Positions 36,671 to 64,000 of a stretch of DNA of 64,000 nt are shown piece after piece (within the stretch, counting starts at the first letter, position 1; each line of letters begins with the position of its first letter). Under the pieces are notes generated by a model. That model had not been told where the DNA came from, made no database searches, and was given only the letters and a program-made list of their open reading frames with translations. The stretch comes from an uncultured Anaerolineales bacterium (GTDB lineage: Bacteria; Chloroflexota; Anaerolineae; UBA7937; B3-Chlor): the NCBI GenBank assembly GCA_964347945.1, contig CAYGAW010000055.1:4787-68786 (forward strand), read 5' to 3'. Both the position numbers and the translations under genes were made by a program.

Positions 36671-36678
36671 GGCCCCTT

Positions 36679-37275: not shown

Positions 37276-37324
37276 GCCATTACCTCCCCGGCAACTTGCC
37301 GTTCACATATACTGCGCAGCCTGT

Positions 37325-46415: not shown

Positions 46416-46482
46416 TGGATTTCTCCTTCAGCCTGACTCAGACTGTGCAACGGCGCGAAAGAGCGCGTCTGCGTCTCTGGGC

Positions 46483-46944
46483 CTATTTCTGGACCCCAGT
46501 GTGCCTCGCCGCCCGGGTGGCAACGACGACGACTATCAGCGCCAGGCCAAGCCCCACCGTCTCCAGCAGGCCAAGCCCTGTCTGAGGCATTCCCGGTGAG
46601 TCCGGGCTAGGGCTGCTCATGCCTGGACCATTCTGACCACCGCCGTTCTCCGGGCCTTCGACTGTCGGACTTGGAGTAGTCGAAGCCATGACCAAAGTGG
46701 GAGTCGGCGCCCGTGTAGGTGTTGCACTGGGCAGCGGCGAAGGAGTAGGAACGTCAGGCTCCTCAAGCACCGGCGTGGGCGAGGCCGCCTCAAGCGGTGG
46801 CATGGCGACCTCCGTGGGGCCAGAGATGAGCCTGAACATCACCAGTCCTCCGATGCCAAGCAGACCCAAGACAAGCGACGCCGTGAGCACGAGTGCAACC
46901 ACCATGAACAACCTGCTACTTCCCGTGTCTGTTCCCTTCTGCAT
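46483..46944 (-). CDS. Small Pro/Thr-rich surface protein with a sortase-type C-terminal sorting signal
   Basis: N-terminal TM or signal segment, a PT-rich region, then MPQTG, a hydrophobic stretch (LGLLETVGLGLALIVVVVA) and a basic tail (TRAARH). Confidence 0.5.
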   Translation of the reverse strand: MQKGTDTGSSRLFMVVALVLTASLVLGLLGIGGLVMFRLISGPTEVAMPPLEAASPTPVLEEPDVPTPSPLPSATPTRAPTPTLVMASTTPSPTVEGPENGGGQNGPGMSSPSPDSPGMPQTGLGLLETVGLGLALIVVVVATRAARHTGVQK

Positions 46945-47021
46945 TTTCCTTCTGAACCTCCTTCAAGCTATGATCACTCTCTCTTCTCTGTAACTGACAG
47001 AAGCTTGGCTTCCACCGAGCA

Positions 47022-50000
47022 CTACTGCCTTTCCACGGCGAACAGATCTTCGTACCGGCTCAGGCCCCGCAGTAGTTCCTCAACGACCTCTGGTTCCATC
47101 CAGTTCGTGACCAACCGAGTGTCAGCCTCAACATCGCCCTCGGTCCCGCCCTGAGTGCCGTTCTCACTGAACGTCAATATCACGACCTCGTGCCTCACAT
47201 CCACCTGGAACGCCTCACCCAGGAAGCGTAGCGTGTAGACGGCATCGGCCCAAACTGGGACCTCGAAGCCACCCGACCCATAGTCCGTCTTCGAGCCACT
47301 GGTGACGCTCACCGAATTGCCCCACGGGTCAACGATGTCCAGGCGTATTCCTTGGCGCGGGAAACATCCAGCTATGGCTCTGACTCCATCGCTCCGAGGT
47401 TGCCGGACCACGCTCATGCTCCACTTCGCTCCGGGCCGCCCAGGACTTGGCTGAGGCGCGGGGGGCGGAACGGGCTCAGGTGAGGGGCCCGGGGACGGAG
47501 GCGCTGGAGCGGGCGGCCGCACCGGGACGGTGATTCCTTGCCGTACGAAACGCGCCATCGCCGACACAGCATCTATGGTTTGCTGGCGCGTGCCGTTTGG
47601 GCCATCGTACCAAGCGGCTGGTTCCTCGCTTCCAGACAGAATCGAAGGGCACACAGCGAACAAGTACTCGGGCAAGCGATCACCGTGGGATAGCATTCCA
47701 TACCTGAACCACGAAAACATGGCCACATGATGGGCCTGATGCAGGAAGTCATCTACCTTGGGATAGCGACGGTCGGTGAGATCACCATACTCCCATCCTC
47801 CTGCGGCACAGATGAAGGGTGGAGCGAAACCCAGTTCATCTTCGAATACCTTCGCATACGCCAGGAATCCCAGGACACAATCATGGTCGTCATTGATGGT
47901 CTGCCCCGGGCGCTGGCCTTCGCGGCGCCAGCGGTTCACTTCCTCTATCGAGCCCGCGAACTCCCACTCGGGATGCTGAACCGGCAACGCGCGCTGGTTG
48001 ATGTCATCGTACGGATAGCGCGCCGGGCGGTTTCGGCCATAGTTGTGGCAGCAGAACCAGCTGTGCCGGAAGATGTGCTCCAGTCCTCGTCTCTTCGCTT
48101 CGCTGATGACCTTTCGCAAGTCCTCGGTCCTATTGACCTGCAGCCCGGGATAGGCATCAGCCTCGACCAGGGACTGCGCTTGCGTCAGCCAGCGTGAGGC
48201 AAACACTTCCATGTCCACGCGACCTGTCTTCCACTCCGTCGCCTTCTCTGGAGCGTTGTACACCTGTATGTAGGCCGGAATCTTCAGCTTCGATAAGATC
48301 CTCGCATCCTTTGCGAAATCATGATCCTCATCGACTAAGCATCTTGGCCGCACCACTGGCATGATGCCCCTCTCCCAGTAGGCCGGGGCCGCCTTTCGCA
48401 GTTGTGCATCCTCCTCAGTGGCCAGCACCACCCATCTCAGGTTGAGCGCCTCCACCCGCGCCAGATCTGTGGCTATGGCCTGGTCCGAGAAATCCAAGCC
48501 TGCATGGATTCCCAGGCCGTTGTCGCCAGGAGGACGCGGCCAATCGGAGTATCCCGTCCTTAGTTCGGGCCAGGTGTCTACAGGCACTCTGTCGGCGCCC
48601 ACAATCTCGACATCGGTATAGTAGTGCGTCAGGATGTCCGCGTAGGTTGCACCCTGCTCCGCCATGGCGATGGCCCCTTGTTGACACATGCCTACGCCGT
48701 GCCCATGCATGGATGGGTAGGGCTTTATGCAAGGTACGCTCCTGCAATAGGGCAAAGCCCGAACCCAAACATCTTCGCTGTTGCGGGTGTGTCCGTCACA
48801 ATGGTCGAAGTAGAAAGCTTGGATCACCTCATCGCCGTGCAGGGCCACTATGTCTGCGGTGTCCTCCACAGCTTTGTCTGTGCTAGGGTACGTATCTGCC
48901 GACCAAGCCTGGCAATGAGTGGTGGTACAGACATCGGCGCTCTGGGCGCTGTGCCTCGGATTCGCCACTGCGAATGCCGCGTAGCAACGGGTGGCCACGG
49001 CCTGGGCCTTGATCGCCTCAATTGGGGCTTCCTCGTCCATCTGTCGCGGGACCACGCCTCGAAGGTACTCTTCGAGACGCATCACCTTGACATTGCCGTC
49101 CGTCGTCAGAACCCTGATCTCCGTCGGTACATGCACGCGGAGTTGGCGCTTCACCTTCGGCAAGGTCTTCAGTCGGACAGCAGTCTGTGGCAAGCGTGGT
49201 TCGCCATTAGGCCTGTACCAACTGTGCCTCACGAAGAAGTTGTCATCCTCTGCTGCCAACAGCCAGAACGCATTGTTGAAGACGTAGTACGGAACGTCGC
49301 CGTTCATCAACATCTGGCACATCGCAGCATGCCGCTCAGCATGTAGAGCTTCGTTGATGGCAGGGGATCGAGGGTCGTCAGCATCCCCCAGCCGCACACC
49401 ATTCTCACAACAGATCATGGGCAGCCGCCGTCCGGTGTACTGGCGGACTATCTCATCGTACCATTCGAACATGTAGAAGCCTGTGTGATCCTCGCAGCCT
49501 GGAGGGCGCTGGAAAGGTTGTGCACAGCGCCAGCGTGCGCTGCCTCCCTTTCCATAGTCCAGCGGCTTGTTGAAGGCATAGTTGTGGATGCCGATAGCCA
49601 TCTTGTCGTACAGGTATTTCTTTCCACGTTGGTTCAGGATGGCCAATGCAGACTTCAAGAAGGAGGTGTCCCAGTAGTCACCGGCCGGAGCCAGAGGGGT
49701 AAACACTGGAATGATCCCGTCCACCGAGTACATTGTTTCTAGGCAAGGTATCAGGAAATCCATGAATCGAGCGGGCAGGCCTTGGGCATTCCACTCGGCC
49801 CACTCAAGCCTGAGGTTGGGTTCGTTGAACGCGTGCACATAGTGCACGCCAAGGGAGGCATAGTACTTGCAGGCCTTGCGCAACCCAGCCTGGTCGATGA
49901 AGGTCACGAATCTCGTGTAGATGCGGATAAGCGGCTCGATGTCGTGGTCAATCAGCCCGCGTAGAAACCACTCGGGGATCGGGTTCACGCCGTCGGACAG

Positions 50001-50150
50001 CACCAATAGCCAACTGGTGCCCATGGCCTTCAACTCCGGCACGAAGGTGTCGAAGTAGCGACGCTCGTAGTGCCATTGATCCGGAAACCAGTGAAACCCT
50101 ATGCCGGTGTCTCCCCTTGGTCTGGGATAGTCGAGCAAGTTCACAATCAT
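47022..50150 (-). CDS. 1042-aa multidomain protein: TIM-barrel glycosidase-like unit 1, SpoIID/LytB-like domain, TIM-barrel-like unit 2 (degenerate), Pro-rich linker, beta-sandwich module
   Basis: Unit 1 has AFNEPNL and ICCENGV. The SpoIID-like segment reads EEYLRGVVPRQMDEEAPIEAIKAQAVATRCYA...GHGVGMCQQGAIAMAEQG (about 48603-49133). Unit 2 has VYNAPEK and ICAAGGW. It is paralogous to 59511..61958. No signal peptide. The start may be GTG 50144. Confidence 0.7.
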   Translation of the reverse strand: MIVNLLDYPRPRGDTGIGFHWFPDQWHYERRYFDTFVPELKAMGTSWLLVLSDGVNPIPEWFLRGLIDHDIEPLIRIYTRFVTFIDQAGLRKACKYYASLGVHYVHAFNEPNLRLEWAEWNAQGLPARFMDFLIPCLETMYSVDGIIPVFTPLAPAGDYWDTSFLKSALAILNQRGKKYLYDKMAIGIHNYAFNKPLDYGKGGSARWRCAQPFQRPPGCEDHTGFYMFEWYDEIVRQYTGRRLPMICCENGVRLGDADDPRSPAINEALHAERHAAMCQMLMNGDVPYYVFNNAFWLLAAEDDNFFVRHSWYRPNGEPRLPQTAVRLKTLPKVKRQLRVHVPTEIRVLTTDGNVKVMRLEEYLRGVVPRQMDEEAPIEAIKAQAVATRCYAAFAVANPRHSAQSADVCTTTHCQAWSADTYPSTDKAVEDTADIVALHGDEVIQAFYFDHCDGHTRNSEDVWVRALPYCRSVPCIKPYPSMHGHGVGMCQQGAIAMAEQGATYADILTHYYTDVEIVGADRVPVDTWPELRTGYSDWPRPPGDNGLGIHAGLDFSDQAIATDLARVEALNLRWVVLATEEDAQLRKAAPAYWERGIMPVVRPRCLVDEDHDFAKDARILSKLKIPAYIQVYNAPEKATEWKTGRVDMEVFASRWLTQAQSLVEADAYPGLQVNRTEDLRKVISEAKRRGLEHIFRHSWFCCHNYGRNRPARYPYDDINQRALPVQHPEWEFAGSIEEVNRWRREGQRPGQTINDDHDCVLGFLAYAKVFEDELGFAPPFICAAGGWEYGDLTDRRYPKVDDFLHQAHHVAMFSWFRYGMLSHGDRLPEYLFAVCPSILSGSEEPAAWYDGPNGTRQQTIDAVSAMARFVRQGITVPVRPPAPAPPSPGPSPEPVPPPAPQPSPGRPGAKWSMSVVRQPRSDGVRAIAGCFPRQGIRLDIVDPWGNSVSVTSGSKTDYGSGGFEVPVWADAVYTLRFLGEAFQVDVRHEVVILTFSENGTQGGTEGDVEADTRLVTNWMEPEVVEELLRGLSRYEDLFAVERQ

Positions 50151-50725
50151 CCTCCTGTCTGGCCATGCTCGCGGTCCTCGGCGCTCTGCGGAATCAGCAA
50201 TTCCTGTCCAAGGGCCAAGATCGCCTCAGGATCCAGTTCGTTCAGAGCCGCAATCTCATCTACTGTCGTACCGTATTGCATGGCGACATCCCACAGATTG
50301 TCACCGGCGCTGATCACGTGCACACGTCGCCGTTCCGTGCGCTCTGTCTCTACCGAGACTGGCTCTCCAGCGAGGACGTCGCCAGTGGTTGCTTCCTCCA
50401 CAGCTGGGATAGCAAGCTCCTGACCCGGCTGCAAGCGATCAGGCTCCGGTAGCGAGTTCGCGTCCACCAGGGCCTGCGGCGTGACTCCGAAGCGCTGCGC
50501 GATTCCCCACACTGTGTCTCCTGCTTGTACGGTGTAGTGGGTGAGCTTCGGCCGTTCAGGGGTGCCTACCGGCGAAGCGGTCGGCGAGGGTGCGGCGAGC
50601 TCTGGCTCCGCCTCCACCGTTGGAGTTGCGGTCGCCATCGGCTTCTCCCTCGTGCAGCCGCCAATCGGAAGCGCGACCGTTATGCACAGCACAGACACCC
50701 ATTGCCATGGGATCCTGCGACCCAC
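50147..50725 (-). CDS. Lipoprotein with two LysM domains
   Basis: Lipobox IGGC. LysM domains read YTVQAGDTVWGIAQRFGVTPQALVDANSL and HVISAGDNLWDVAMQYGTTVDEIAALNEL. Its stop overlaps the next gene start as ATGA. Confidence 0.85.
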   Translation of the reverse strand: MGRRIPWQWVSVLCITVALPIGGCTREKPMATATPTVEAEPELAAPSPTASPVGTPERPKLTHYTVQAGDTVWGIAQRFGVTPQALVDANSLPEPDRLQPGQELAIPAVEEATTGDVLAGEPVSVETERTERRRVHVISAGDNLWDVAMQYGTTVDEIAALNELDPEAILALGQELLIPQSAEDREHGQTGG

Positions 50726-50744
50726 GGGATGACCTCCTCTCAGT

Positions 50745-52472
50745 CTACTTGGGAGCGTTCCTCAGGGCGTCATAGGCCGGCCTGGTAGTGCCATCAGGAT
50801 TAGTGATGGCCCACCAATACTGCTCATCGGCCTCGGTCCATTTCACATCCGCAATGGAGAGCACCGTCATGGGGCCCATCCACGGCGACCAATGGTCGCG
50901 TGCCCATTGAAAGGCGCGTACTATGTAGTCAGCCTTCGTTTCCTCGGACACCGCATGCCACTGGTACGGGGATCCGGGTCTAGGATCGCTCGTCCAGCCG
51001 AACTCCAACACGGCCATCTGCTTCCCTGCGTCGCCGTTCTGCACCATGATCTGGCGCAAATCTTCGACACGCCTGAAGCAGAAGAAGCGCCTTCCTCCCA
51101 AGGCAGGGTTGTTCGCCACCTCAGCTGGATCTGTCTCTGGGGCAGCCTTGTAACCCGGTGCATGAACGCCCAGCACGTCGAAATAGTTCTTGGCGCCGGC
51201 CTGGTACATCTCACGCAGATATTGGGCATCCGGAATGGCGTGGGGGAGCCCAGTTCCTGTGGGAGCCAAACCCGCCGTCATGACCACGGCGTTGGGGTCG
51301 GCCTGCTTGATGCCACGATGGGCCACTCGCAGGAGAGCGACATATTCTGCGGCGTTGGGTGCCTTGCCACCCCACTCGCGCGCCAGATTCGGCTCATTCC
51401 AGATCTCATACGCATGGATCTTCCCGCGATATCGGCTCGCCATAGCGTAGAGAAAGTCACCATAGTCAATGTAGTTGTCCGGCGGACCGTTGTTCGCGCC
51501 GTCGGCTCTCGCCCAAATCGGCTGGAAATCCACGCGAGCAATGATCTTCAGTCCACGATCATTGAGGATCTGGACCAGCTGGTCCGCAACCGACCAATCG
51601 AAGATACCTTTACCTGCCCCTTCGATGTTTTTCCATGGGAACACCTCTTTGACCCAGGTCACTCCCGCGTCCTTTGCCAACTGAGCATCTCGATCGCGGT
51701 GCTCCCCATTCCACCACATGAAGGTATGAACCCCGTACTCTGGCGTCTTCGTGCCAGGCGCCGGGCCAGGCTTCGCGGTCGGTGTCGGAGAAACCGTGGG
51801 CCCAGGTGCTGGAGTGGTCGGTCGGGGTGTTGGCGTGGGCGAACTGCTCGGCGAGCATCCCGGGATCGTCAGCCGCTGGCCAACCCAGATGAAGGAAGGA
51901 TTGGCCAGGTTGTTGGCGATGGCAATGGCCCACACCGTAGTGCGATACGCGAGAGCGATTCTCGTCAAGTTATCGCCACGCTTCACGACATAGACACAGG
52001 TCTGAGCTGGCTGAGAGGGCTGGGACGGTGCTCCCTGCCCGGGAACCCGGAGCGTCTGTCCCGCGAAGATGAGGTTGGGATTCACCAGCCCGTTCAACGA
52101 GACGAGGCCGTTGACGGTGGTTCCAAAGCGGTAGGCAATACCCGATAGGGTGTCTCCTCTCCGCACCACATAGGTGGTCGTCGAGCCCGACGGAGGCGGC
52201 GCAGGAGATGTCGAACCAGTCGGGATCACCAACCTCTGGCCTGCGTAGATGTAGTTGGGATTGGCTATCCCGTTCGCCTGCGCGATAGCCGTGGTGCTGA
52301 CACCATAGCGCCGGGCTATCAAGGTAAGATTCTCACCCCACTGGACTATGTGGATCTGCGAAACCGTACTTTGAGGATTCGTCTCAGGCGCCCCCCAGAC
52401 AGGAGATGCCAGGCCTGCGAGAAGCGCAACCAGAGATACCACCATCACCAGCCGACGTTTTCTGTTCCCCAT
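50745..52472 (-). CDS. Secreted protein with three LysM domains plus a clan GH-A (GH5-like) TIM-barrel glycoside hydrolase
   Basis: Signal peptide, three LysM domains, a PT linker, then YEIWNEPNL (acid/base context) and [10 protein letters not shown] (nucleophile context). Confidence 0.8.
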
Positions 52473-52567
52473 TTCTCTACCTCCTTCTTGCGACCGTCAT
52501 GGACGACAGGGTGCTGCTGGTCCGCGATCCGTCGATCTGAACCGAACTGCCGTGTGATAAACACTCT

Positions 52568-52753
52568 CTAAAACCCTCTTCCATAGGCCATACCAATAAG
52601 CCAGCCAACGACATACGCGACCACCAGGATGACCAGCAGAAACCTCACCTGAAGCAGTCCACTGGTTATCGATGCTGTGGCTCTCCAGAAGATCAGCCGA
52701 AGCATGCCCACACCTCCAGGACCGGGCTCCTCAGAGCCTGCGGCCTGCAACAA
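52568..52753 (-). CDS. Possible small membrane protein
   Basis: The ORF starts 1 nt after the upstream stop and has a C-terminal hydrophobic helix FLLVILVVAYVVGWLIGMAYG. There is no homology evidence, and the true start could be the internal MLRLIFW. Confidence 0.25.
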   Translation of the reverse strand: MLQAAGSEEPGPGGVGMLRLIFWRATASITSGLLQVRFLLVILVVAYVVGWLIGMAYGRGF

Positions 52754-52754
52754 C

Positions 52755-54362
52755 TCACCGATATACAGTCCGTTGAAATGTCAGGACGAACCCTGTGTGG
52801 ATTGTCCAGTCAGGGTGCTCCGGAGTGCCCAATCCCATCCCCACCATGATATCGCTGGGCAACCCTTCTACATACGCGCTGTAAGAACAAAGCACGTTGA
52901 ACATCGGATACTTCACCGGATAGTCCCACGGGTAGCAGCAACTCTGGGGTTCGCTGACCACCCGGTTGCGGCCGCCGTTCTCAAAGATCACGGCCTCTCC
53001 GAACACGCGCTGCCCGGCTTCGTCCAGCAGATCCACGTGGATCTGGATGTCTTTGCGGCTCTCCTCCTCACTCAGCCATCTCGCGCTCACCAGCCGCCAG
53101 TAGCGATCGCCTGCTCGCAGCTGTATCCCTCGATCCGCCACAGTCCGCATTCCTACGCACGGCAAAGCGTTCAGCCGCGAATCCCATTCTACGGGGGGCA
53201 ACGGTGTGTTTGGCACGGCAGTCGGGGAGGTATTGCTGGTTGGCACAGGAGTGGGATTCCCTCCGGAGTACTGGAAGACGATGCTGTCGAACTGTCCGGC
53301 GGTGCCGCAGTCGGTGAACCGGATTTCCGCCGTGCCCGACTCGGGTACTGGATTAGCCTCGCTCTTCACGATGTCAATCAGAAACGTGAAAGGAGAATGG
53401 AAGTTCTCCGGAGCCAACGGCGCGAACCCCCACATACCCGGGTCCTGGCCCGCTCCGCTTATGTTGTAGACGACATGACCCGCGAAGCGTAGCCGCACGG
53501 TCCTGCCGCTCACCGGCTCGCCTCCAACACCTCTGATCTGGCCCTTGAAGTACACCGTTCCGCAGTTGGGGTATTGGCGCATGCTACCCTGCACGTACGT
53601 GAATGCGTACGCGGATGGCGTCGGCTGGCTAGGAGGCCTCGACGTCGGTGTCGCCGCCTGACGAGTAGGGACAGCTGTCCTCGTCGGCACGGGCGCTGGA
53701 TTGTCGTCTGCAGGTGACCGAGCCCCTGGTATGACCAACGATTGGCCAACGTAGATGAATGATGGATTCGCGATATTGTTCGCGAGGACAATATCCCACA
53801 TGCTGACGCCGAAACGGGTGGCAATGCCTATCAGGGTGTCCCCCCACTGAACGTGATAGGTCGTACGGGTCGTGGGCTGACTCGCTGGCTGGCTGGGCGC
53901 TGCACCCCCAGGGACCGCCAGCCTCTGCCCAACGATTATCAGGTTCGGGTTGGTTAGACCATTCAATTGCACCAGGCGCTGCACCGTCGTTCCACGCCGA
54001 GCAGCTATGGCAGACAGCGTATCTCCCCTCTGAACCACGTAGACCCCGGAGTTGGCGGGTGCGGGAGATGTGGTCCCTGGGATAGTAAGCCTCTGGCCTA
54101 CGTAGATCCAATCGGGGTTGCTGAGCTGGTTGGCCTGCGTGATCGCGGAGACGGAGGTCCCATACCGCCGCGCTATGCTGGACAAAGTATCCCCCCAGGA
54201 AACGACATAGATGGTGGGTTCAAGAGCTTCAGGTACTGCAGACATGGCTGAGGGAACACTCGCGACAAGGCCTAGCATGACCAGCGACAACAGACCAGCG
54301 ACCAGGAGCCCCCGAGCAGTGAGTGTCATTATGATACGCTTGCGTGTCCTTGCCATCGTCAA
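52755..54362 (-). CDS. Secreted protein with three LysM domains, a PT linker and C-terminal beta-sandwich modules
   Basis: Signal/TM segment, three LysM domains collinear with those of 50745..52472, and a C-terminal module YWRLVSARW...[28 protein letters not shown]...HTGFVLTF that is shared with 59511..61958. Confidence 0.8.
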
Positions 54363-54378
54363 TCCCCTGGTCTGAGCC

Positions 54379-54615
54379 CTATCTTGAGACAGCGACCTTC
54401 AAGACCCTTCCTTCTTCGTTGGTGGTCAAATGCACAATCTGCTGGAACTTCTCTCCATTGGGTGAGCTCAGGGCCTTCCGGTAGGTGAAGCGATGCCTCG
54501 CCTGTCCTCCACGATTTGTGGAGCTGACCCTCGGCTTCACACTTGCCATCTCCGGGAAGTGCTTCTCAAGATGTTTCTGCGCCCTCGTTCTACACTCTTT
54601 GGAAGGCTTAGGCAT
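54379..54615 (-). CDS. Small basic protein overlapping the ftsZ stop
   Basis: 78 aa. The ATG overlaps the ftsZ 3' end by 8 nt. The C-terminal 43 aa align without gaps to the C-terminus of 61946..64000. Confidence 0.55.
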
Positions 54616-55807
54616 GTTTCTCCTCCCCTTCCTCCCCTACCCTGGCCAATCTCCGGCGTCTTAGGAAGGTGGGCACGTCCAAGTCAAGTAGATCGACGCC
54701 CTGCCGGGACCGGTCGAACTCCAGCGATTCCTTCCCTGTGGCGGCTCGCGGAGTACTAGGCGGCCTGCGGTAGAAAGATCTACGGTCGCCCACGGGCAAA
54801 CTCAGAGCGGATGGCGCTGATCGCAGACCATCCATCCCTACCGCTATGAGCATCACCTGCAATTGCCTGCCCATGCCGGGATCCACCGTAGCGCCGAAAA
54901 AGATGTTAGCCTCGGGACTGGCCACCCCGGCCACGGTGCTCACAGCCTGCTGGATCTCGTCCAGAGACAGGTCGTTTCCACCGGTGATGTTGACCAAGAT
55001 TCCCGATGCGCCTGCAATGGAGGACAGCTCGGAAAGAGGGCTGGCGATTGCCAGCTCTGCGGCTTCTATTGCCCGATCATCCCCACGGCCCTGTCCGATC
55101 GACATGAGTGCGGGGCCAGCGTCTTGCAGTATGGTCCGGACGTGCATGAGATTGAGATTGATGACGCCTGTACTCGTGATCAGCTCTGCCACGCCTTGAA
55201 TCCCTTGCCTCAGTACCTCGTCCGCTATCCGGAAGGAGATGTCGAGCGAGGTCTCCTCATCGATGAACTCCAGCAGGCGGTCATTGGATATGGCGACGAG
55301 GGTGTCCGACTTCACCGCGAGAGCCTCCATGCCTTCTTGAGCCGTCTCACTGCGTCGGCGCCCCTCGAAGCTAAAGGGGGTCGTCGCAACGGCGATGGTC
55401 AACGCTCCGCTCTCACGCGCCAACTCCGCAATGACCGGGCCTGCACCCGTCCCCGTACCACCACCTAGACCGAGTGCCAGAAAGACGATCTCTGCCCCGC
55501 TCAAGGACTGTCGCACTGCTTCCGCGCTTTCTTTGGCTGCCTTGGCCCCAACTTCAGGATTCCCCCCAGCTCCGAGGCCTCTGGTGGTCTTCGGCCCGAG
55601 TTGAACCTTACGCGGTGCCTCCGACAGGGCAAGAGCCTGCGCGTCGGTATTCGCCGCGAGGAATTGCACCCCAGGAATACCTACGTGAATCATCCTATCG
55701 ATGGCGTTACTGCCCCCGCCACCAATTCCGATGACCTTGATCAATGGTTGGTAGTGCTGTGGAGTCATTGCTTCCCTCTGCGAACGCCCGCTAGCTAACC
55801 CATTCAT
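54608..55807 (-). CDS. ftsZ: Cell division protein FtsZ
   Basis: IKVIGIGGGGSNAIDRM, GLGGGTGTGAGPVIAE (tubulin signature), and a C-terminal peptide LDVPTFLRRRR. Confidence 0.95.
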   Translation of the reverse strand: MNGLASGRSQREAMTPQHYQPLIKVIGIGGGGSNAIDRMIHVGIPGVQFLAANTDAQALALSEAPRKVQLGPKTTRGLGAGGNPEVGAKAAKESAEAVRQSLSGAEIVFLALGLGGGTGTGAGPVIAELARESGALTIAVATTPFSFEGRRRSETAQEGMEALAVKSDTLVAISNDRLLEFIDEETSLDISFRIADEVLRQGIQGVAELITSTGVINLNLMHVRTILQDAGPALMSIGQGRGDDRAIEAAELAIASPLSELSSIAGASGILVNITGGNDLSLDEIQQAVSTVAGVASPEANIFFGATVDPGMGRQLQVMLIAVGMDGLRSAPSALSLPVGDRRSFYRRPPSTPRAATGKESLEFDRSRQGVDLLDLDVPTFLRRRRLARVGEEGEEKHA

Positions 55808-55821
55808 TCGCGCTGCTCCCC

Positions 55822-58452
55822 TCAGCCTCGCTCCGATCCCACGTACCTACGGAGCACAGCCAAGAGTCCCTCCAAACGGTCAAGAAAGATGCGTAAGGCT
55901 TGCGCTGCGCCCTGGGTGACTGGCTCAGAGCCATCCGCGTCTGATCCATCGCCAATCTGTACGATGACCGGACCCACGAGGTTGTTGGCCTCGTCAACCT
56001 CAGACACGAGCCCAGCCTCTCCCTCGGGGTTGTAGGCATCCGCGTAGGCGTAGAGTTCGTGTCTGCCGGTCGGGAGACTGCCTCCGAAGTTGGTGTAGCG
56101 CCCGTCAACATCCTCCAAGGATAGGCTCAGCGATTCCTGAGCACCTAGGCTCGGCACGTACCAAAAGGCACCAACACCATCCGCCACTGCGATCGAGTTT
56201 ATGGTCGGAACGGTCGGCGGGTCCACGAAGAGCTCAACCCAGAAGCCGGTCGCTATCTCAACCCTGGCCCGGTTCCCGATCGTCACGGTGATCCCTACGC
56301 TGCCCGCATCCAGTCCCGCCTCAGGCGTCACCGTGATGCCATCTACCACCAAGTCCGGTAGATCACTTGACGGAAGGTCCGGAGTAACCGTGAGCGTAGG
56401 TGAAGCCGTGGGTAGGGGGCTGGCTCCTGGCGTAGTGCCAGGGGTTGGACGCGCCGATTCACCATAGGCCGGACTTAGCCCTTCGTTGCCTGCCCTGTCC
56501 GCTATCCTAAAACGCACGTCCGCGCCAGCCATTCCAGCCGATAGCCGACAGTAGGTGACCAATGGGTCCTCCCCCTCGGGAGCGTCGCAGGAGACAGGCT
56601 GCCAGGCGCCCCAGGTCAGACCCCCGTCGGAGGACACGGAAAACACGGCGCTCGATGGATCCAGCCCGCTTCCGTGATCAAACACTTCGACGACCACCCC
56701 GCCAGACTCGTCCATGTCCACAGAGTCCCAATCGCCTGGCGTCACCGTGTCCAGACCGATGGTGTCGGTATATGTGGCTGACGTGTTCCCCGCTTGGTCG
56801 AGGAAACGCACCCCGATAGTCTTCTCTCCGTCGCCAGAACTCAGAACCCATTCCTTGGTACTTGCGAACTCCTCCACCTCGCTGAACTGGCTGGCGCCAT
56901 CGTGGGTGAACTTCATGCCGGCTATGTCGCTCCGATCATCCTCGGCCTCAAGGCTGAGGGTGACCGTCAGCTGCGATGTGTAGGATGCGCCTTCGTCAAT
57001 CTCGACGGAGCCGGTCGGCAGCGTGTTGTCCACTATTACCTCACGCACCACACGAGAAGTGCGGCCTTGGATGCTGGTGGCCACTGCCTCGATTCGGTGT
57101 TGGCCTTCGATGAACTGGCGTGTGTTCCATGTCCATGTGAGCGACGCCGTGCTTTCCTTTTGCACCGTTCCGTCCAGGTACAGCTGTATGCGGGAAGTCG
57201 TGGGACTCGGACTGGATAAGCGGACCTCCGTCACACCAGACACGGCCTCCCCTGCCTCCGGGCTAGCTATCTCTACTCTCGGTTTGTGCGCCAGAAGCCG
57301 CTGCCACGTCTGCTGGCGTAGCTCGGGCAGTACCTTGTACACGTTGTCGCCCGGACAGATCGTGGGCCAGAGATCGCGATGCGCCACCAAATGGGGGAAC
57401 TTGCGCTGGATGAAGTACGACGATTCCAGTGGATGAATGTTGAAGCGATCAGCCTCCCACGCCATGAGGGAGATCAATGCCTCCTTCATCGCGGGGGTCA
57501 TCTTGGCATATCGGTAATCACCCAGTAGAGCGATTCCAATGCTGCCGTAGCTGTAATCGCGAGCGTGTATCCCAACCACGCCATCTCCGCCCTTGCGTCC
57601 CTCGTAGACGTTGCCTTGGCGATCGATCAAGAAGTTGTAGCCGATGTCACCCCATCCCCGTGATATGGCATGATACTGGTAGATGGCACGCACGATGTAC
57701 GCCGGATCTTCGGGGTTATTCGGCGTCACCGTGTGGTGGATAACGAAGGTAGTCGGCTGGCGATAGATCGGCTTCCGCGTCGCCCAAGCCTCGTTGGCTC
57801 CCCAGCCCCTGCGAGAGATGATGCGCGGTTGGGGCACTCCAGATGTTGCCTCCTGAGGGAGAATCATAGCCCTGGCCTCCTCGACACCGGGCCCGTCGCG
57901 CGTGTTCATGAGCGCGAATACCAGCTCCCGCACCAAGGGCGACATGCTAGCATCGAAGGTGCCCAGGATCAGCCGATACTGCAGGTACCGCGATGGAGAC
58001 ACTTCGATCAGATTGCCGTGCGTCAACTCCTCCATCTCAAGCCCGTCCTCATCTGGAGGGACCTCCGTCCAGTCAGTCCACGCCCTCCGATCACGGCTGG
58101 CACGAACCTCAAGATGAAACGTAGTCCCCGGGGGCCTGTCTGCGGCCCAAGCGGCGCCCACCATGTTGAAGACCACCGACGACTCGTGAACGGCGGAAGT
58201 GAAGCTGCCCCTTGGGCAGAACTCCGCTCCCTCCTCCTGGGACAGGCTGACCTCTCCGTCGTCCAATACGGAGAGTGCGGTGCAGTCCCGCTCTCCCAGT
58301 TCGAAGTCAGCCAAGGTGGTCTGCGTCCACTCGGCGTAAGTCCCCTCTTGCACGCTGGTTTCGCTCCTCACCAGCATCTCCTTGAACGGTACGCCCTGCA
58401 GTATGAACAGCGTAGCAGAGAGTAGAATCAAGGCGGTCAGTGTCCGTCGCAT
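55822..58452 (-). CDS. Secreted multidomain N-acetylmuramoyl-L-alanine amidase (Amidase_2/PGRP type)
   Basis: Signal peptide. The Amidase_2 core reads FVIHHTVTPN...YQYHAISRGWGDIGYNFLIDRQGNVYEGRKGG...GIALLGDY. Ig-like domains and a CARDB-like C-terminal domain (LPDLVVDGITVTPE...) follow. Confidence 0.8.
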   Translation of the reverse strand: MRRTLTALILLSATLFILQGVPFKEMLVRSETSVQEGTYAEWTQTTLADFELGERDCTALSVLDDGEVSLSQEEGAEFCPRGSFTSAVHESSVVFNMVGAAWAADRPPGTTFHLEVRASRDRRAWTDWTEVPPDEDGLEMEELTHGNLIEVSPSRYLQYRLILGTFDASMSPLVRELVFALMNTRDGPGVEEARAMILPQEATSGVPQPRIISRRGWGANEAWATRKPIYRQPTTFVIHHTVTPNNPEDPAYIVRAIYQYHAISRGWGDIGYNFLIDRQGNVYEGRKGGDGVVGIHARDYSYGSIGIALLGDYRYAKMTPAMKEALISLMAWEADRFNIHPLESSYFIQRKFPHLVAHRDLWPTICPGDNVYKVLPELRQQTWQRLLAHKPRVEIASPEAGEAVSGVTEVRLSSPSPTTSRIQLYLDGTVQKESTASLTWTWNTRQFIEGQHRIEAVATSIQGRTSRVVREVIVDNTLPTGSVEIDEGASYTSQLTVTLSLEAEDDRSDIAGMKFTHDGASQFSEVEEFASTKEWVLSSGDGEKTIGVRFLDQAGNTSATYTDTIGLDTVTPGDWDSVDMDESGGVVVEVFDHGSGLDPSSAVFSVSSDGGLTWGAWQPVSCDAPEGEDPLVTYCRLSAGMAGADVRFRIADRAGNEGLSPAYGESARPTPGTTPGASPLPTASPTLTVTPDLPSSDLPDLVVDGITVTPEAGLDAGSVGITVTIGNRARVEIATGFWVELFVDPPTVPTINSIAVADGVGAFWYVPSLGAQESLSLSLEDVDGRYTNFGGSLPTGRHELYAYADAYNPEGEAGLVSEVDEANNLVGPVIVQIGDGSDADGSEPVTQGAAQALRIFLDRLEGLLAVLRRYVGSERG

Positions 58453-58487: not shown

Positions 58488-58934
58488 CTAGATGCCATAC
58501 TCACTCAGGGCCTCTGAGAACCTCTCTGCTCGTTCCTCGATACCGGATTCCTGTCTCGCCCAACGCTGTGGATTCCAGATCTCGAGACGTGTCGCAACAC
58601 CGACGAGCACCACCTCATCGCCCAATTCTGCATAGCGCCGCAGATGGTCCGGGACCTCTATTAGTCCATCAGACTCGAGGCTACCGATCGAAGCCCCCCC
58701 GTAGACATGCCGCTGGAACATCCGAGCAGCTTCTCGCAAGAATGTGGTCCCATGGTCGATCCGGTCCGACAGTTCCTTCCACCGATCACGAGGGAAAATG
58801 GCCACGCAGTGATCCAACCCTCTGGTCATGACAAACCCCGGCTGCAGAGCCTTCCCTATCTCAGCGGGCACAACAAGACCCTCACCAGAAAGCCGTATGC
58901 CTTCGTAAGTACCCAGCAACAGATCACCTACCAC
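58488..58934 (-). CDS. mraZ: MraZ-like (SpoVT/AbrB-fold) protein
   Basis: Duplicated half-domains and the family C-terminal pattern VVLVGVATRLEIWNPQRW. Both DXXXR motifs look degenerate (LSGEGLVVP and ESDGLIEVP). Confidence 0.65.
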   Translation of the reverse strand: MVGDLLLGTYEGIRLSGEGLVVPAEIGKALQPGFVMTRGLDHCVAIFPRDRWKELSDRIDHGTTFLREAARMFQRHVYGGASIGSLESDGLIEVPDHLRRYAELGDEVVLVGVATRLEIWNPQRWARQESGIEERAERFSEALSEYGI

Positions 58935-58949: not shown

Positions 58950-59501
58950 CTACCGTCTGAGCCTGCCGAGGCGAGCTCTGACCAGCTCCTTCACATCGCG
59001 GAGAAGTAGATCCAGTTCGTGCTCCAATCCCTGGTACACGTCGCGGGTATCCTGCTCAGCTCGCTGGAGAAGTCGCGCTGCCTCCTGCTCCGCCGCTTCC
59101 AGCACCTCCTGGGCTCGAACCTCGGCCATCTTCGCCAGTTGGGTCTGGTCGAGAATCAGAGCCGCCTCGCGCTCCGCCCGTTGTCTAATCTCCTCAGCCT
59201 CTACCTCTGCCCTCTCCAGTACCTCGCCCTCTTCCAACAGGATTCGCTTTGCCTGCATCATCTCCGACGGCCAGGCGGCACGAATCGCCTCCAGAGTCTC
59301 CAGGCAATGCTCCTGATCGATGATCACCCTGGAGCTCAACGGGACTTTGACACCAGAGCAGATGAGGTCCTCGATCTCGTCCATGAAGAGGTTCATCTCG
59401 TAGGCAAATGGCAGGCTCGCATCGTCGAATTGGCTGCTGCGGTCGCCACTCGTGGTCTCGTACACTTCACCGTATGAAGAGCCGTCCAGTCTCATGATCA
59501 T
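58950..59501 (-). CDS. Coiled-coil protein of unknown function
   Basis: 183 aa. The N-terminal segment reads FMDEIEDLICSGVKVPLSSRVIIDQEHCLETLEAIRAAWPSEMMQAKRIL. A long Ala/Glu/Arg/Gln-rich helix follows. Confidence 0.5.
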   Translation of the reverse strand: MIMRLDGSSYGEVYETTSGDRSSQFDDASLPFAYEMNLFMDEIEDLICSGVKVPLSSRVIIDQEHCLETLEAIRAAWPSEMMQAKRILLEEGEVLERAEVEAEEIRQRAEREAALILDQTQLAKMAEVRAQEVLEAAEQEAARLLQRAEQDTRDVYQGLEHELDLLLRDVKELVRARLGRLRR

Positions 59502-59510: not shown

Positions 59511-61958
59511 CTAGCTGGTGCCCTGAGATGCAGTGCTCGCTCTGACAAAGCCAGAGATGTCCTTCACCGACTGTATGGTCAGCACCTTGGTTGTGAAGCC
59601 ATACCAAGCTTCGTCGCTCGGGCCGCTTAGTATCCATGGGCAGGCGGCGAACAGATATTCGGGAAGCGTTTCCCCATTGGAGAGTTCGCCGTGGCGGAAC
59701 CACTCGAACATCGTCCTCGTGTATCTGGCGTGAACCATTCCATCCACGCGCGGATAGCGATGGTCATCGTATGCTCCATACAGCCACCCGCCCTCTCCGC
59801 AGATGATTGGTGGGACGAAGCCCAGGCGCCTCTCGAACACGTCGGCGAAGAACGTGTAGCCGAGAACACACCAAGGATCCTCTTGCCAGTCTGGAGGATG
59901 GTTCAGACCATAGTTGTGGGCACAGAACCAGACCCGCTCCCACACCTGAGAGTCGGGCCCCAGCGCGTGTATGGCCGCCTCCAGCTCCTCTGGCTGCAAG
60001 CACTGTAGCCCCGGATAGCCACCGGCGTTGTACACATCGATGGCCTTCTGCGCCCACAGCCCTGCCCACTTCTGGACGTAGTCCTTGGGCCTCTCGCGCC
60101 GCCATTCCCGGGGGTCCGACGGCTCGTTGAAGATCTGGAGGTAGGCCGGGATGCCATGCTCGATGAGGACACGAGCGTCCCGATCGAACGGATAGGTCCT
60201 GTTGATTTCTGTGATCTGTCTACACACCGGCATGATCCCTGCATCCCAGATCATCTTGGCGCACCTCAGGAGCTGTCCTTCGCCCTCGTAACAGAGAGTC
60301 GCCCAGGTGAGCTTCATGTCCTTGGCTCTCCTGATGTCCAGAGACATAGCCTCGTCGGTTGTATTGAGCCCAAGGTGAATCCCCATCCCGTTGTCGCCAG
60401 GCGGTCTGGGGAAATCGCTGTATTTCACCGATCGTTGTGGAGCTGGCTCAGGCGCCGGCGCTGGTGTCGGCGGCCCCAGAGGCGAGTCCTCTGCACCCGG
60501 ACCCGCTTGTACAAACGTGACCAGCACTGGATGATGCTGGATACCATTCAACTCCAGGTTGTCGCCATAAAGGCCGAACCCGCTCAGTCTCTCGCTGTTG
60601 CCTACAACCTCCACCGAGTAGCCACCCCAGCCTGCGAACATGGGCATGGAAGCTGCCTGGTGCCGAGCACCTGGCGGCGCATACGGGTCATCCTTGGGAC
60701 CGACTACATATTCACCATCAGGCCACGAGAAGCGGACGGTCTCCGCATCTACGATGGCAAAGGCACTCATGTTGCCGGTACCAGGCTGCACCTCGACACG
60801 AACAACTTTCCAGTATGGCTCGCTCTCGTTCTGGGGACCGCTGATGCGCAAGGTATCGATCATCTCTTGAGAGAGCCCAATGAACTCCACATCCCCGACT
60901 GAATCAGGCGGCGGGGTAGGAGAAACCGGGCCTGGATCCTGCCCATCAATAGAGCGAGGATGCTTGAGCATGCCCTTCACTGCAGAAGCCGCCTGGCACT
61001 CTTTCCCGTCTGGCCCGTGCCAAGCGTGAACCCTGGATGGGTGGCCTTCATCGGTAGCCAAGAGCCAGAATGTGTGGTTCACCACATACTCCGGAATCGA
61101 CCCATCCATCATCATCCCGGCAATACTCACAGCGCGATCCGCATGTCGCTTCTCGTCGGTCCACACACCATTGACTGGGGAATATGGATCTCCTACGGTC
61201 CCACTGCCCATGCATACCAGCCCCAATGAGGCTCCCACTGTAGCCTTGATGATTTCGTCGTACCACTCGAAGAGGTTGAAGCCGATGTGATCTTGGGACT
61301 CCCCAGGGCTGAAGTACGGTCTGGCTGCCGGCCAGCGTTTCCGTCCTCCCTGACCCCAAGACAGAGATTTGTCCCAGGCATGGTTGTGCATACCCACGCC
61401 CATCCTCTCAAAGAGGGACGCCTCTACCTTTGAAGTCAGAAGTTGCAGAGCTGTCTGCAGGAAGCTCAGATCCCAATAGCTCCCCGGGGGGCGCAATGCA
61501 GGGAAGACTGGATGCAAGCCAGCGGCCTGCATCTCTTCGAGACAAGGCACCAGCACGTCCACGAACCTCTGTACGAGAGAGAGCTGACACCAGTCTTGAG
61601 GGTGCCATCGCGAAGCCACATTGGCCTCACCTAATACCTCCACATAGTTGACACCCCAGCCAGCATAAGCACCGAGAAGCTCGCCTAGGCTAGACCTGTC
61701 TATGGGCTCGACCGCTGGCGTCGATACCCGTACCACGGGCTCGATCTCATTGGCTATCAGTTCCTTGACGAAGAACTCCGGGATCGGCCCACCCAGGCGG
61801 GACAGGACGACGAGCCAACTGGCACCCATACTTTTCAGTTCAGGCACCCACTGCTTGATGTCCTGCGGGCTGTAATGCTGAGTGTCCGGGAAATAGTGAA
61901 AGCCAAACCCAGTATCGTTCTGCGGCCGCGAGTATCGCTCCAATGTCATTTTGGCCAA
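59511..61958 (-). CDS. 815-aa multidomain protein: TIM-barrel-like unit 1 (degenerate), beta-sandwich module, Pro-rich linker, TIM-barrel glycosidase-like unit 2
   Basis: Paralog of 47022..50150. Unit 1 has VLGEANV and VCMGSGT. The module lies at about 60507-60896. Unit 2 has IFNEPSD and ICGEGGW. No signal peptide. Confidence 0.7.
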   Translation of the reverse strand: MAKMTLERYSRPQNDTGFGFHYFPDTQHYSPQDIKQWVPELKSMGASWLVVLSRLGGPIPEFFVKELIANEIEPVVRVSTPAVEPIDRSSLGELLGAYAGWGVNYVEVLGEANVASRWHPQDWCQLSLVQRFVDVLVPCLEEMQAAGLHPVFPALRPPGSYWDLSFLQTALQLLTSKVEASLFERMGVGMHNHAWDKSLSWGQGGRKRWPAARPYFSPGESQDHIGFNLFEWYDEIIKATVGASLGLVCMGSGTVGDPYSPVNGVWTDEKRHADRAVSIAGMMMDGSIPEYVVNHTFWLLATDEGHPSRVHAWHGPDGKECQAASAVKGMLKHPRSIDGQDPGPVSPTPPPDSVGDVEFIGLSQEMIDTLRISGPQNESEPYWKVVRVEVQPGTGNMSAFAIVDAETVRFSWPDGEYVVGPKDDPYAPPGARHQAASMPMFAGWGGYSVEVVGNSERLSGFGLYGDNLELNGIQHHPVLVTFVQAGPGAEDSPLGPPTPAPAPEPAPQRSVKYSDFPRPPGDNGMGIHLGLNTTDEAMSLDIRRAKDMKLTWATLCYEGEGQLLRCAKMIWDAGIMPVCRQITEINRTYPFDRDARVLIEHGIPAYLQIFNEPSDPREWRRERPKDYVQKWAGLWAQKAIDVYNAGGYPGLQCLQPEELEAAIHALGPDSQVWERVWFCAHNYGLNHPPDWQEDPWCVLGYTFFADVFERRLGFVPPIICGEGGWLYGAYDDHRYPRVDGMVHARYTRTMFEWFRHGELSNGETLPEYLFAACPWILSGPSDEAWYGFTTKVLTIQSVKDISGFVRASTASQGTS

Positions 61959-64000
61959 CTTCCTCTGTCCACGCGTGTCCCACCCCTTGACATCACGACC
62001 TTCATTACCTTTCCATCAGTGTTCACGGTGACCTTGACCACCTGCCGCAGCTGCTGCGCTCCTTTCGAAACGACCCTTTGCTGAGAAGTCACCATCAGCT
62101 CAGTGACACCTCCCTCCCTTTCCTTGGCACAACTGGACTTGCTCGAGGCACAATTCTCACCAGAACAGTCGACTCTACACAGGATGAGTGGATGGCCTTC
62201 AAGCCCGTTCGTGCGAAGGAAAGGCACACTGCGCTGCAGTTGTTGCTGCACATCCTTGGCAAGCGGCACTGACTCTGTTTCCTTCATCCTTGAGCAGCAG
62301 GCCAGCGGGGGGCAGGCAACCTCGAGTTGCGTCTCCAGTTCCAGCGGTTTGGAGGCCGCTTCTAGTCTCAACGAAGGGTCACCATACAGGACAAAGCTCA
62401 ACAACGCCTTCTGATCTTCCCCATCCAGGTAGCCGTGCTCTGACGCTACTGCCTGAATGAACGCTGACCTGGCTCTGCGCAACGCGCATCCGATGGGCAG
62501 CCCTGCTACGACACCCTCCCACAGATGCCTGCCAAGCAGGTCGGCACCAGAGAGTGGAGGCGCCAAAGATCCGTAGGACATTGCAGTGCTCCCAATGAAC
62601 CCCAGAGCACCATTGCCGAGGAAACTCAAGGCTATTGAACCATCGCCACACTCATTCTCAACTTGAGCGCCGTAGCATGCCTCCGAGTAGATCACGGCCC
62701 CGTCTGCATTCGCCCAAGAAACCGATAGAGGCGTAAGCGCGATGGGTAGCAAGGGCGAACCGTGCTCCGATTCACCATGACCGTACCAGTACGGACTTCC
62801 CCGGAAGCCATGAAGATTGAAGTAGCCGAGTGTGCGTATCTCCTCATACGCGCTCAGGAAGTCATAATCAGTGAAAGGGGGAGAGACTTGCAGTTTGTCG
62901 GCGTCGCCGATCACTTCGAACACCGAGCGAGATGCCTCTGCCCAAATCTCAGCCGAGTAGCCAACGCTGCTCCACGAGCCCTGTCCGCTGCGGAACAATC
63001 TCGTCACAGGATTCACCCACCGCCGAGACGCATTTCCCTTGCCCAGGCGAGCGAACGCATTGTGATGTGCGATAGCATTGTCCACCAGCTGCAATAACAT
63101 CTCCGGATTGGACGGCTGACCATCGGGAAGACGCCCTACGCTCAACCGGGAAAGCAACGAACTGCCGTCCGCAGCGGCGTACGGCCAGTCTGACAACACC
63201 TCGGCGTCTTCATCATCGGCAGGGTTAGCCAGCCTGTGGAAGGGAATCACCGAGTCGCCACCGATGATCAAGAGTGATCTGAGTTCCCTCGATTCTTGCT
63301 TCAATGCGGAACCCAGTTGTTCGACAAGTCGTGATACCTGCTGTGCATCTGACGGATCAACCCCAGTGAGCCCAAACTCATCAAGGCACGAGTCGTCATC
63401 TACATAGACCTTGATGACCTCATCTCCCGTCGACCGCGATGCGGCCTCACATAATTCTGAGAGCCTGGCATCCAGTTCACGGTGTCCGGCCTCCCCATAC
63501 CGTGAAATCAGCCTGTCGCGACTGGACAGAATGAGACGGACCGTGGTCTCCTCGCCTGCACTGTCCACGGGGGCTTCCCACATGGGCACGTCACGGGTGG
63601 ACGCCAAGTCGGCCGTCTGACCAGACCTAGCAGCCACGATGTCCCAATCCTGGCCCTTCTGGTGCCGATCTGGGCTTGACGAGAGCCAGGACCACTCCGC
63701 CGAAGTCTTCGTTGCGGCTGGTGGCTCAAGCAAAGGCTCTGCCCCGAGGAGATGCCGAAGGACTGTCGGAGCGCTGTCCATGGTCGCCGTCTCCGGACCC
63801 GGCACTTCGAGGCTTCTCACCATCACGGAATCGTACCGCTCATCCATGCCAAACAGCTCTCGTGCGACGACCCAACTGCAATCCAAGGACTGGGCGTCGT
63901 GCAGCAGAGCGACTCCCAGGGCGTCATCTCGCTGGTCCAAGGCTATGTCCGCCAGAATCAGCCTGGGCCTGATCCACGTGGGATGCTCATCGACGAGTCT
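61946..64000 (-). CDS. Gingipain/caspase-like (clan CD-type His/Cys dyad context) protein with a Cys-rich region and a C-terminal small domain; the 5' end possibly lies beyond the window
   Basis: LLIIGGDSVIPFHRL, YFNLHGFRGSPYWYGHG (His-Gly context), AVIYSEACYGAQ (Ala-Cys context), and the Cys cluster ACPPLACC...CRVDCSGENCASSKSSC. The ORF track starts at TTG 63940, but my reverse translation of 63941-64000 (RLVDEHPTWIRPRLILADIA) has no stop. The gene overlaps the next one by 13 nt. Confidence 0.55.
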   Translation of the reverse strand, partial: RLVDEHPTWIRPRLILADIALDQRDDALGVALLHDAQSLDCSWVVARELFGMDERYDSVMVRSLEVPGPETATMDSAPTVLRHLLGAEPLLEPPAATKTSAEWSWLSSSPDRHQKGQDWDIVAARSGQTADLASTRDVPMWEAPVDSAGEETTVRLILSSRDRLISRYGEAGHRELDARLSELCEAASRSTGDEVIKVYVDDDSCLDEFGLTGVDPSDAQQVSRLVEQLGSALKQESRELRSLLIIGGDSVIPFHRLANPADDEDAEVLSDWPYAAADGSSLLSRLSVGRLPDGQPSNPEMLLQLVDNAIAHHNAFARLGKGNASRRWVNPVTRLFRSGQGSWSSVGYSAEIWAEASRSVFEVIGDADKLQVSPPFTDYDFLSAYEEIRTLGYFNLHGFRGSPYWYGHGESEHGSPLLPIALTPLSVSWANADGAVIYSEACYGAQVENECGDGSIALSFLGNGALGFIGSTAMSYGSLAPPLSGADLLGRHLWEGVVAGLPIGCALRRARSAFIQAVASEHGYLDGEDQKALLSFVLYGDPSLRLEAASKPLELETQLEVACPPLACCSRMKETESVPLAKDVQQQLQRSVPFLRTNGLEGHPLILCRVDCSGENCASSKSSCAKEREGGVTELMVTSQQRVVSKGAQQLRQVVKVTVNTDGKVMKVVMSRGGTRVDRGSWPK

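Follow-up and report, generated by a model that had tools for sequence, protein, structure and literature searches.

A stretch of 64,000 nucleotides from an uncultured Anaerolineales bacterium (contig CAYGAW010000055.1 of assembly GCA_964347945.1), here called the window, holds an ftsZ gene whose 3' end overlaps a short open reading frame (ORF) for a basic protein of 78 amino acids. We refer to this small gene and its product as s78. Further upstream on the same strand lies the gene of a putative cysteine protease that ends in the same domain, and the pair is surrounded by genes with likely roles in cell wall remodelling. A first-pass annotation of the window had pointed to the gene overlap and to the shared domain, and had proposed s78 as a partner or tether of FtsZ. 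Here we describe the gene pair, the family to which s78 belongs, the protease and the conserved neighbours, and then weigh what s78 may do. Coordinates of the main features are collected in Table 1.

The ftsZ-s78 gene pair and the s78 family

The two genes are read in different frames. Re-checking the coordinates confirmed that s78 starts 8 nucleotides before the ftsZ stop codon ends, as had been claimed, and a Shine-Dalgarno-like GGAGG lies a short distance 5' of the s78 ATG. Comparable purine-rich motifs, GGAGG or GGAGC, precede the ATG in most relatives. With an 8-nucleotide overlap and a GGAGG inside ftsZ, the pair has the sequence features of translational coupling of s78 to ftsZ. Several computed ORFs on the opposite strand also overlap s78.

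The ftsZ product carries a canonical C-terminal peptide, DLDVPTFLRRRR, followed by a tail of 13 residues that holds the s78 ribosome-binding site; the peptide itself reads DLLDLDVPTFLRRRR. Its description as normal in the first-pass annotation is borne out by comparison across 14 loci, 13 of which have a canonical peptide of the form D[LI]D[VI]P[TA]FLRRR, that of lineage L004 being more divergent. The 13 extra residues after the peptide, encoded within 54608..54650 (-), include an acidic GEEGEE stretch, and because the GEEGEE codons make up the purine-rich ribosome-binding region of s78, this tail may have been shaped by the overlap and not by FtsZ function.

The pairing of the two genes is not peculiar to the window. 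In 20 of 20 distinct lineages, drawn from JGI, ENA, NCBI and Logan assemblies and spanning 91% to about 20–30% identity to the window protein, an s78 gene lies directly 3' of ftsZ on the same strand. Conservation of the ORF downstream of ftsZ in relatives had been proposed as a check on the first-pass annotation, and this is the result. The distance from the ftsZ stop to the s78 start takes values of −8, −4, +1, +5, +23 or +38 nucleotides among the 14 junctions measured, and in 12 of these the genes overlap or are at most 5 nucleotides apart. The larger ORFs scanned in the 64-kb window yielded no match to an FtsA, SepF, ZipA or ZapA domain, in agreement with the earlier remark that ftsA, sepF and zipA are not adjacent.

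Among 5.8 billion proteins searched there were 11 close homologues of s78, all exactly 78 amino acids long and 59–100% identical to it; the identical one is labelled 'MAG: hypothetical protein GTO63_26440 [Anaerolineae bacterium]'. Pairwise ratios of nonsynonymous to synonymous substitution rates are 0.08–0.28 (codons 5–78, pairs without saturated synonymous sites). An AlphaFold2 model made from only these 11 sequences reached a mean predicted local distance difference test score (pLDDT) of 92.8 and a predicted TM-score of 0.79, and consists of one helix (residues 6–19) followed by four strands (29–35, 38–50, 56–66 and 71–77), with the helix probably packed on the sheet. By these measures of sequence and predicted structure, s78 is a real gene under selection.

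To examine the wider family, a profile of the 11 proteins plus the protease tail from the window was searched against 1.84 billion representatives of 50%-identity clusters. At E ≤ 1e-3 it matched 122 clusters, and some 116 of them consist of free-standing proteins of 67–113 amino acids that match over nearly their full length. The family consensus is FPE[LM]xGVxPxV...YxLTF...RxVRVxxDxxGKILKxxxSR, where SR is the C-terminal end, and conservation is highest in the helix-capping FPE[LM] loop and in the last strand with its ...SR. Members have a mean net charge of +7.5. The free-standing ones contain no hydrophobic stretch and are therefore expected to be cytoplasmic and not inserted into the membrane.

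The domain had not been recognised in the first-pass annotation, and our searches bear this out. Neither s78 as a single sequence nor the 11-sequence profile gave anything significant against Pfam, NCBIfam or PDB sequences, and no Pfam or NCBIfam model was significant when 118 family members were scanned singly. Profiles of PepSY, cystatin, SepF and ZapA matched none of the 118 members (PepSY, cystatin and SepF at E ≤ 1), and the only recurrent hint from Pfam was a weak match to DUF4901 (YcdB/YcdC repeat) in 5 of them, with a best E-value of 0.011. A literature search, which left most subscription journals outside its reach, found no description of an s78 protein or of an ftsZ-linked cluster with a tetratricopeptide repeat (TPR)/C25 protein in Chloroflexota. 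All source names attached to family members are Anaerolineae, Anaerolineales or Chloroflexi/Chloroflexota; the taxonomic range given here rests mainly on such names in the database matches, since the genome scan, which relied on one peptide pattern, led to no more than 9 loci. On this sequence evidence the s78 family is an unannotated, single-domain family whose named sources are all Anaerolineae.

Structure comparison likewise returned no significant relative. Foldseek found no PDB match to the s78 model at E ≤ 1e-3; the best had an E-value of 0.047, with TM-scores of 0.4–0.5, and the top matches, none of them significant, were NTF2-like proteins, DUF4738 and pseudopilins, which have a generic alpha+beta(4) layout in common with s78. 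One helix on a four-stranded antiparallel sheet is also the arrangement of cystatin-like, NTF2-like and PepSY domains, and the s78 topology is compatible with PepSY (PF03413) or cystatin. Beyond this topology, what could be set beside those families was the weak DUF4901 match and Foldseek similarity that did not exceed a TM-score of 0.5. Secretion is typical of PepSY and cystatin domains, but s78 is predicted to be cytoplasmic and has no signal peptide. Because no Foldseek match was significant, the s78 fold is not assigned to the PepSY, cystatin or NTF2 families.

A protease ending in the same domain

The similarity first noticed between s78 and the protease covers 43 residues, where residues 36–78 of s78 align without gaps to residues 610–652 of the 664-residue protease ORF (61985..62113). 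The gap-free match stands as first described, with 14 identities instead of the 15 originally counted and an ungapped BLOSUM62 score of 72. BLASTP extends the alignment to 55 residues with 17 identities (E = 7e-8 for the pair). In the shuffled-sequence control that the first-pass annotation had called for, the observed Smith-Waterman score of 80 compares with 28.7 ± 4.1 (maximum 51) in 2000 shuffles of s78, none of which reached 80. The BLASTP E-value and the shuffles together argue that the similarity is not compositional. When the free-standing family was aligned with the protease tails, hhalign gave a probability of 97.9% and an E-value of 4.1e-13 over 79 columns, pairing residues 4–78 of s78 with roughly the final 100 residues of the protease, where ~18–20 residues are inserted after the helix. 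Since this alignment spans residues 4–78, the whole s78 protein is homologous to the protease tail. The shared domain is thus genuine, as proposed, and is kept in 10 lineages, but it extends beyond the last 43 residues of s78.

An s78-like module closes the protease, as judged by hidden Markov model (HMM) matches, in 10 of 10 lineages examined, which span about 30–90% identity. In distant lineages the module stops at ...VSR, just as the free protein does. The window copy is followed by 12 extra residues (61949..61984), and both these residues and the Cys-rich insertion of ~18–20 residues after the helix belong to the window's sublineage. An AlphaFold2 model of the module has the same order of elements as s78, with a pLDDT of 63 and a low-confidence Cys-rich insertion. 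The positions invariant in both free and fused copies are P21, G69, K73, S77 and R78. The insertion, LCRVDCSGENCASSKSSC, lies between helix and sheet at 62140..62200 (-) and is found only in the window's sublineage; that it forms a metal site is speculation.

The catalytic part of the protease matches the Pfam family Peptidase_C25 (PF01364) with E = 1.5e-14 and 54.5 bits, against a cut-off of 23, over residues 187–526. Full-length homologues have 865–940 amino acids and begin with TPRs. The His-Gly and Ala-Cys motifs (Table 1) each follow a hydrophobic strand, which is the pattern of clan CD, and the nine lineages that share both invariant motifs are only 31–67% identical overall. Given this invariance, the protease is probably active; its putative catalytic residues are assigned from the motifs, and not by alignment to a solved gingipain. 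Against PDB the single sequence had no match and the profile gave TPR matches only, so that no solved gingipain was matched.

Gingipains, the best-known members of this peptidase family, have a signal peptide, a secreted prodomain, and immunoglobulin-like and type IX secretion C-terminal domains. The window protease resembles them in its catalytic-domain profile and its His-Gly/Ala-Cys signature. It differs in that its family has N-terminal TPRs, a C-terminal s78-like module and no signal peptide; no signal-peptide-like hydrophobic N-terminus was seen by eye in the full-length homologues. The earlier label 'gingipain-like' fits the catalytic domain and not the architecture as a whole.

Sixteen lineages offered several kb of flanking sequence, and in 12 of them the protease gene and ftsZ are no more than 10 kb apart. 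The protease gene is mostly upstream, with downstream positions in L004 and L017, and it is absent within ±10 kb in L015, L016, L018 and L020, and also from the P0160 place. A giant TPR protein of 1737–2269 amino acids is encoded directly before it in L001 (1..49), L003 (1..690), L005 (1..2609) and L017 (11690..17203), and in the window such a gene would fall beyond position 64000. The protease ORF had been taken as the head of the cluster, which does not hold in these relatives, where the TPR protein of 1700–2300 amino acids precedes it.

Conserved neighbours and the wider window

Table 1. Positions of the s78 gene, ftsZ, the protease and conserved neighbours in the window.
Feature	Position	Strand	Remarks
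61-aa ORF	52568..52753	-	C-terminal transmembrane segment, tail-anchored type; candidate membrane partner
s78 gene (78-aa basic protein)	54379..54615	-	ORF
s78/ftsZ overlap, 8 nt	54608..54615	-	s78 ATG 54615..54613; ftsZ TAA 54610..54608
ftsZ, 399 aa	54608..55807	-	Pfam Tubulin 1.3e-45, FtsZ_C 1.3e-26
Shine-Dalgarno-like GGAGG	54622..54626	-	6 nt 5' of s78 ATG, within last ftsZ codons
815-aa protein	59511..61958	-	no signal peptide, no Pfam match; N-terminal ~330 residues are a 'HYFPD' domain
TPR/C25-like cysteine protease gene	61946..64000	-	frame open to window end; N-terminal TPR part beyond 64000
Protease C-terminal module	61985..62275	-	homologous to whole s78 (BLASTP, shuffles, HMM, hhalign)
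SEACYG motif, Ala-Cys422	62669..62686	-	putative catalytic Cys; [ST]EACYG invariant in 9 lineages
YFNLHG motif, His377-Gly	62807..62824	-	putative catalytic His of clan CD; invariant in 9 lineages

In distant lineages the pair belongs to a core of four genes, encoding a 'HYFPD' protein of ~410–500 amino acids without a Pfam match, FtsZ, s78 and a protein of 53–92 amino acids with a C-terminal transmembrane segment. The 'HYFPD' protein, a single-domain homologue of 410–500 amino acids, is encoded directly upstream of ftsZ in L003–L005 and L016–L020. The short ORFs, with the pattern 'IELxFW...TM' (TM, transmembrane segment), directly follow s78 in L003, L005, L016, L017, L018, L019 and L020. The window retains all four elements, but they are dispersed. 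Its 'HYFPD' domain, ~320 residues without a Pfam match, forms the N-terminal part of the 815-residue protein and occurs twice more in a SpoIID-domain protein of 1042 residues (47022..50150, -). The counterpart of the short transmembrane protein is the 61-residue ORF, which follows the first LysM gene, occupies the same place in L001, L007, L009, L011 and L013, and has a transmembrane end reading ...LRLIFWRATASITSGLLQVRFLLVILVVAYVVGWLIGMAYGRGF. Across the deep split between these groups the tail-anchored ORFs show weak homology, and their equivalence is argued mainly from position and architecture.

An array of wall-remodelling genes stands round the ftsZ pair at 45063..58452 (-) and is found in the window's lineage only. 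It encodes an 876-residue Amidase_2/Big_7 protein, three LysM proteins (one of them with a glycosidase-like domain), the SpoIID-domain protein, a 153-residue protein and a LytR_cpsA_psr protein. Upstream of ftsZ are mraZ and the 876-residue amidase gene, and downstream of s78 are the three LysM genes and those for SpoIID and LytR. Wall-remodelling genes have been inserted on both sides of the ftsZ-s78 pair in the window's lineage.

The mraZ gene (58488..58934, -) occurs without mraW and is preceded by a gene for a coiled-coil-looking protein of 183 residues (58950..59501, -), which is present in close lineages only and has weak NCBIfam matches to helical proteins of the ATP-synthase-b type. 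Elsewhere in the window, the segments 4498..13919 (+), 15941..18931 (+) and 35414..38695 (-) hold elongasome, kinase/phosphatase and tig-clpP-clpX genes. The mreB-mreC-mreD-PBP2-rodA operon is interrupted by a gene for a TMEM260-like protein of 1069 residues, and the gene of a Ser/Thr kinase with a PQQ beta-propeller adjoins that of a PP2C phosphatase. Following the small genes, L004 (8259..13814) and L017 (10528..11643) have in common a membrane protein of ~260–280 residues and a protein of 109 residues with two transmembrane segments, about 50% similar, which suggests a longer conserved division operon in these two lineages.

A candidate division factor and its possible partners

Proteins encoded by overlapping genes in a fixed order are usually partners. 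We read s78 as an adaptor of FtsZ or the divisome because the two genes overlap, FtsZ is acidic (isoelectric point 5.2) and s78 strongly basic (11.0), and the docking peptide of FtsZ is retained. In this scheme s78 would be made together with FtsZ and, as a small adaptor or modulator, would work on FtsZ or the early divisome, in a role comparable to that of the Zap proteins or SepF. The s78 domain would be a protein-binding module, and the fused copy would bring a cytoplasmic protease of the TPR/C25 type to the same partner as s78, while free s78 may compete with the protease or gate its access. Membrane attachment, if any, would come from another conserved small protein, the tail-anchored one. 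On comparative genomics, a functional tie between s78 and FtsZ is strongly supported, as is the shared module; to the fuller proposal, of an adaptor whose fused copy targets the protease, we assign a probability of roughly one half.

Several points weigh against this proposal. Operon position alone cannot identify a binding partner, and the strong basic charge of s78 would also suit binding to nucleic acid or anionic lipid. Foldseek against PDB showed no structural similarity of s78 to known FtsZ partners, and the negative result for FtsA and SepF covers the larger ORFs of the 64-kb window. In addition, s78 and the protease need not act together, since in four lineages no protease gene lies within ±10 kb of ftsZ.

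Whether s78 could itself tether FtsZ to the membrane was considered separately. The conserved linkage to ftsZ lends support to the part of the original suggestion that concerned a partner of FtsZ. A direct membrane tether is unlikely: the sole helix of s78 is hydrophilic (mean hydrophobicity −0.77, hydrophobic moment 0.33) and sits in a compact domain, and hydrophobic segments are lacking throughout the family. Should a tether exist, the tail-anchored neighbour would be a better candidate.

Among known FtsZ partners, SepF and the Zap proteins come closest to the function proposed for s78, which shows none of the sequence or structural features that define them. SepF (PF04472) binds FtsZ, anchors it to the membrane and has its gene close to ftsZ in Firmicutes, Actinobacteria, Cyanobacteria and Archaea. 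Like SepF, s78 is a small, presumably cytoplasmic alpha/beta protein of the ftsZ operon, with ftsA not adjacent, and the role proposed for it is of the same kind. It differs in having neither a profile match (among 118 members) nor a fold match to SepF, in lacking an N-terminal amphipathic membrane-targeting helix, and in the order of its elements, a helix and then four strands, where SepF has the order strand-strand-helix-strand-strand-helix-strand. With ZapA and other Zap proteins s78 shares its small size, cytoplasmic location and non-enzymatic character, and like them it would modulate FtsZ assembly; it has no Pfam match to ZapA (PF05164), however, and no coiled coil is predicted in its model, which has a single short helix and four strands. 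In model bacteria the Zap genes usually do not adjoin ftsZ. Since FtsZ here keeps the peptide that FtsA and ZipA bind, some reader of that peptide is to be expected. Unlike FtsA and ZipA, to which it has no homology, s78 has no membrane-binding element, and a separate tail-anchored protein would be needed.

The presence of the module on a protease also allows the relation to be read the other way round, and this is the main rival reading. The module could be a regulatory domain of the protease, autoinhibitory or substrate-gating, and free s78 an inhibitor, decoy or activator acting in trans; coupling to ftsZ would then tie protease activity to the amount of FtsZ, for example by protecting FtsZ from cleavage. 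This would fit with the constant place of the module at the protease C-terminus in 10 lineages of about 30–90% identity, with the five positions (P21, G69, K73, S77 and R78) kept in free and fused copies, with a helix-then-four-strands layout that is also that of cystatin-like and PepSY-type inhibitors, and with the weak DUF4901 match (5 of 118 members, best E = 0.011). However, neither sequence nor fold gave a significant match to PepSY, cystatin or an inhibitor family. Moreover, s78 is bound to ftsZ, adjacent in 20 of 20 lineages, more closely than to the protease gene, which may stand on either side of ftsZ, is at least a few kb distant, and is missing from the surrounding ±10 kb in four lineages. 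This tighter linkage to ftsZ somewhat disfavours a regulator of the protease, and we consider it unlikely, although it is compatible with s78 being an FtsZ adaptor.

Lower still in our estimate is a basic protein that binds nucleic acid or anionic membranes, such as a nucleoid factor or an RNA-binding operon regulator, and does not touch FtsZ. Its appeal lies in the isoelectric point of 11.0, the family mean net charge of +7.5, and the net positive charge (+1 to +8 in the C-terminal 100 residues) of the module on an otherwise acidic protease. Yet no known nucleic-acid-binding family or fold was matched, a domain fused to a protease would more typically be one that targets proteins, and conservation peaks at the FPE[LM] loop and the last strand and not at scattered basic residues. 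All three points make this reading distinctly improbable.

The setting of s78 among wall-hydrolase genes in the window's lineage could also mean that it is a conserved operon passenger serving the wall-remodelling genes (amidase, LysM, SpoIID and LytR) and unrelated to FtsZ. Distant lineages keep the ftsZ-s78 pair without those wall genes, and s78, having no signal peptide or membrane segment, could not reach the wall, so that we think this very improbable. Finally, the notion that s78 is a spurious ORF with a compositional similarity to the protease can be dismissed on the evidence of length conservation, purifying selection, a confident predicted fold, ~116 free-standing clusters and a shuffle control in which 0 of 2000 sequences reached the observed score.

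Two well-known systems offer functional analogies for the protease and s78, with no homology implied. In separase-securin, a small protein controls a clan CD protease whose scaffold is a large helical repeat, and ClpXP is a cytoplasmic protease that sets FtsZ levels. An improbable, far-reaching extension of the FtsZ-adaptor proposal would give Anaerolineae a lineage-specific Z-ring core, made up of the cytoplasmic 'HYFPD' glycosidase-like protein, FtsZ, s78 and the tail-anchored protein. In it, s78 and the tail-anchored protein would form a membrane tether in two pieces, with s78 as the bridge to FtsZ, and would stand in for FtsA or SepF. The module would bring the TPR caspase-like protease to the ring, where FtsZ or one of its partners would be cleaved, with free s78 competing for the same site. 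If true, this would amount to protease-gated control of septation in multicellular filaments.

To our knowledge, the anchoring and regulation of FtsZ outside the model phyla are largely unknown, and Chloroflexota, an early-branching and often filamentous phylum with a disputed envelope, have almost no cell biology. Read modestly, the data add a domain family that is new and show that four genes, ftsZ among them, form a conserved neighbourhood, which annotation pipelines now label 'hypothetical'. More specifically, s78 appears to be a small partner protein of the ftsZ operon built on an undescribed domain family, with the link to a protease as its unusual element. That a conserved caspase-like protease carries this domain as well points to a possible connection between proteolysis and division that has no described bacterial counterpart. 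Found across the sampled Anaerolineae, locked to ftsZ, unannotated and with no detectable relative among known FtsZ partners, s78 offers a concrete and, on comparative sequence grounds, strong candidate for a new division factor.

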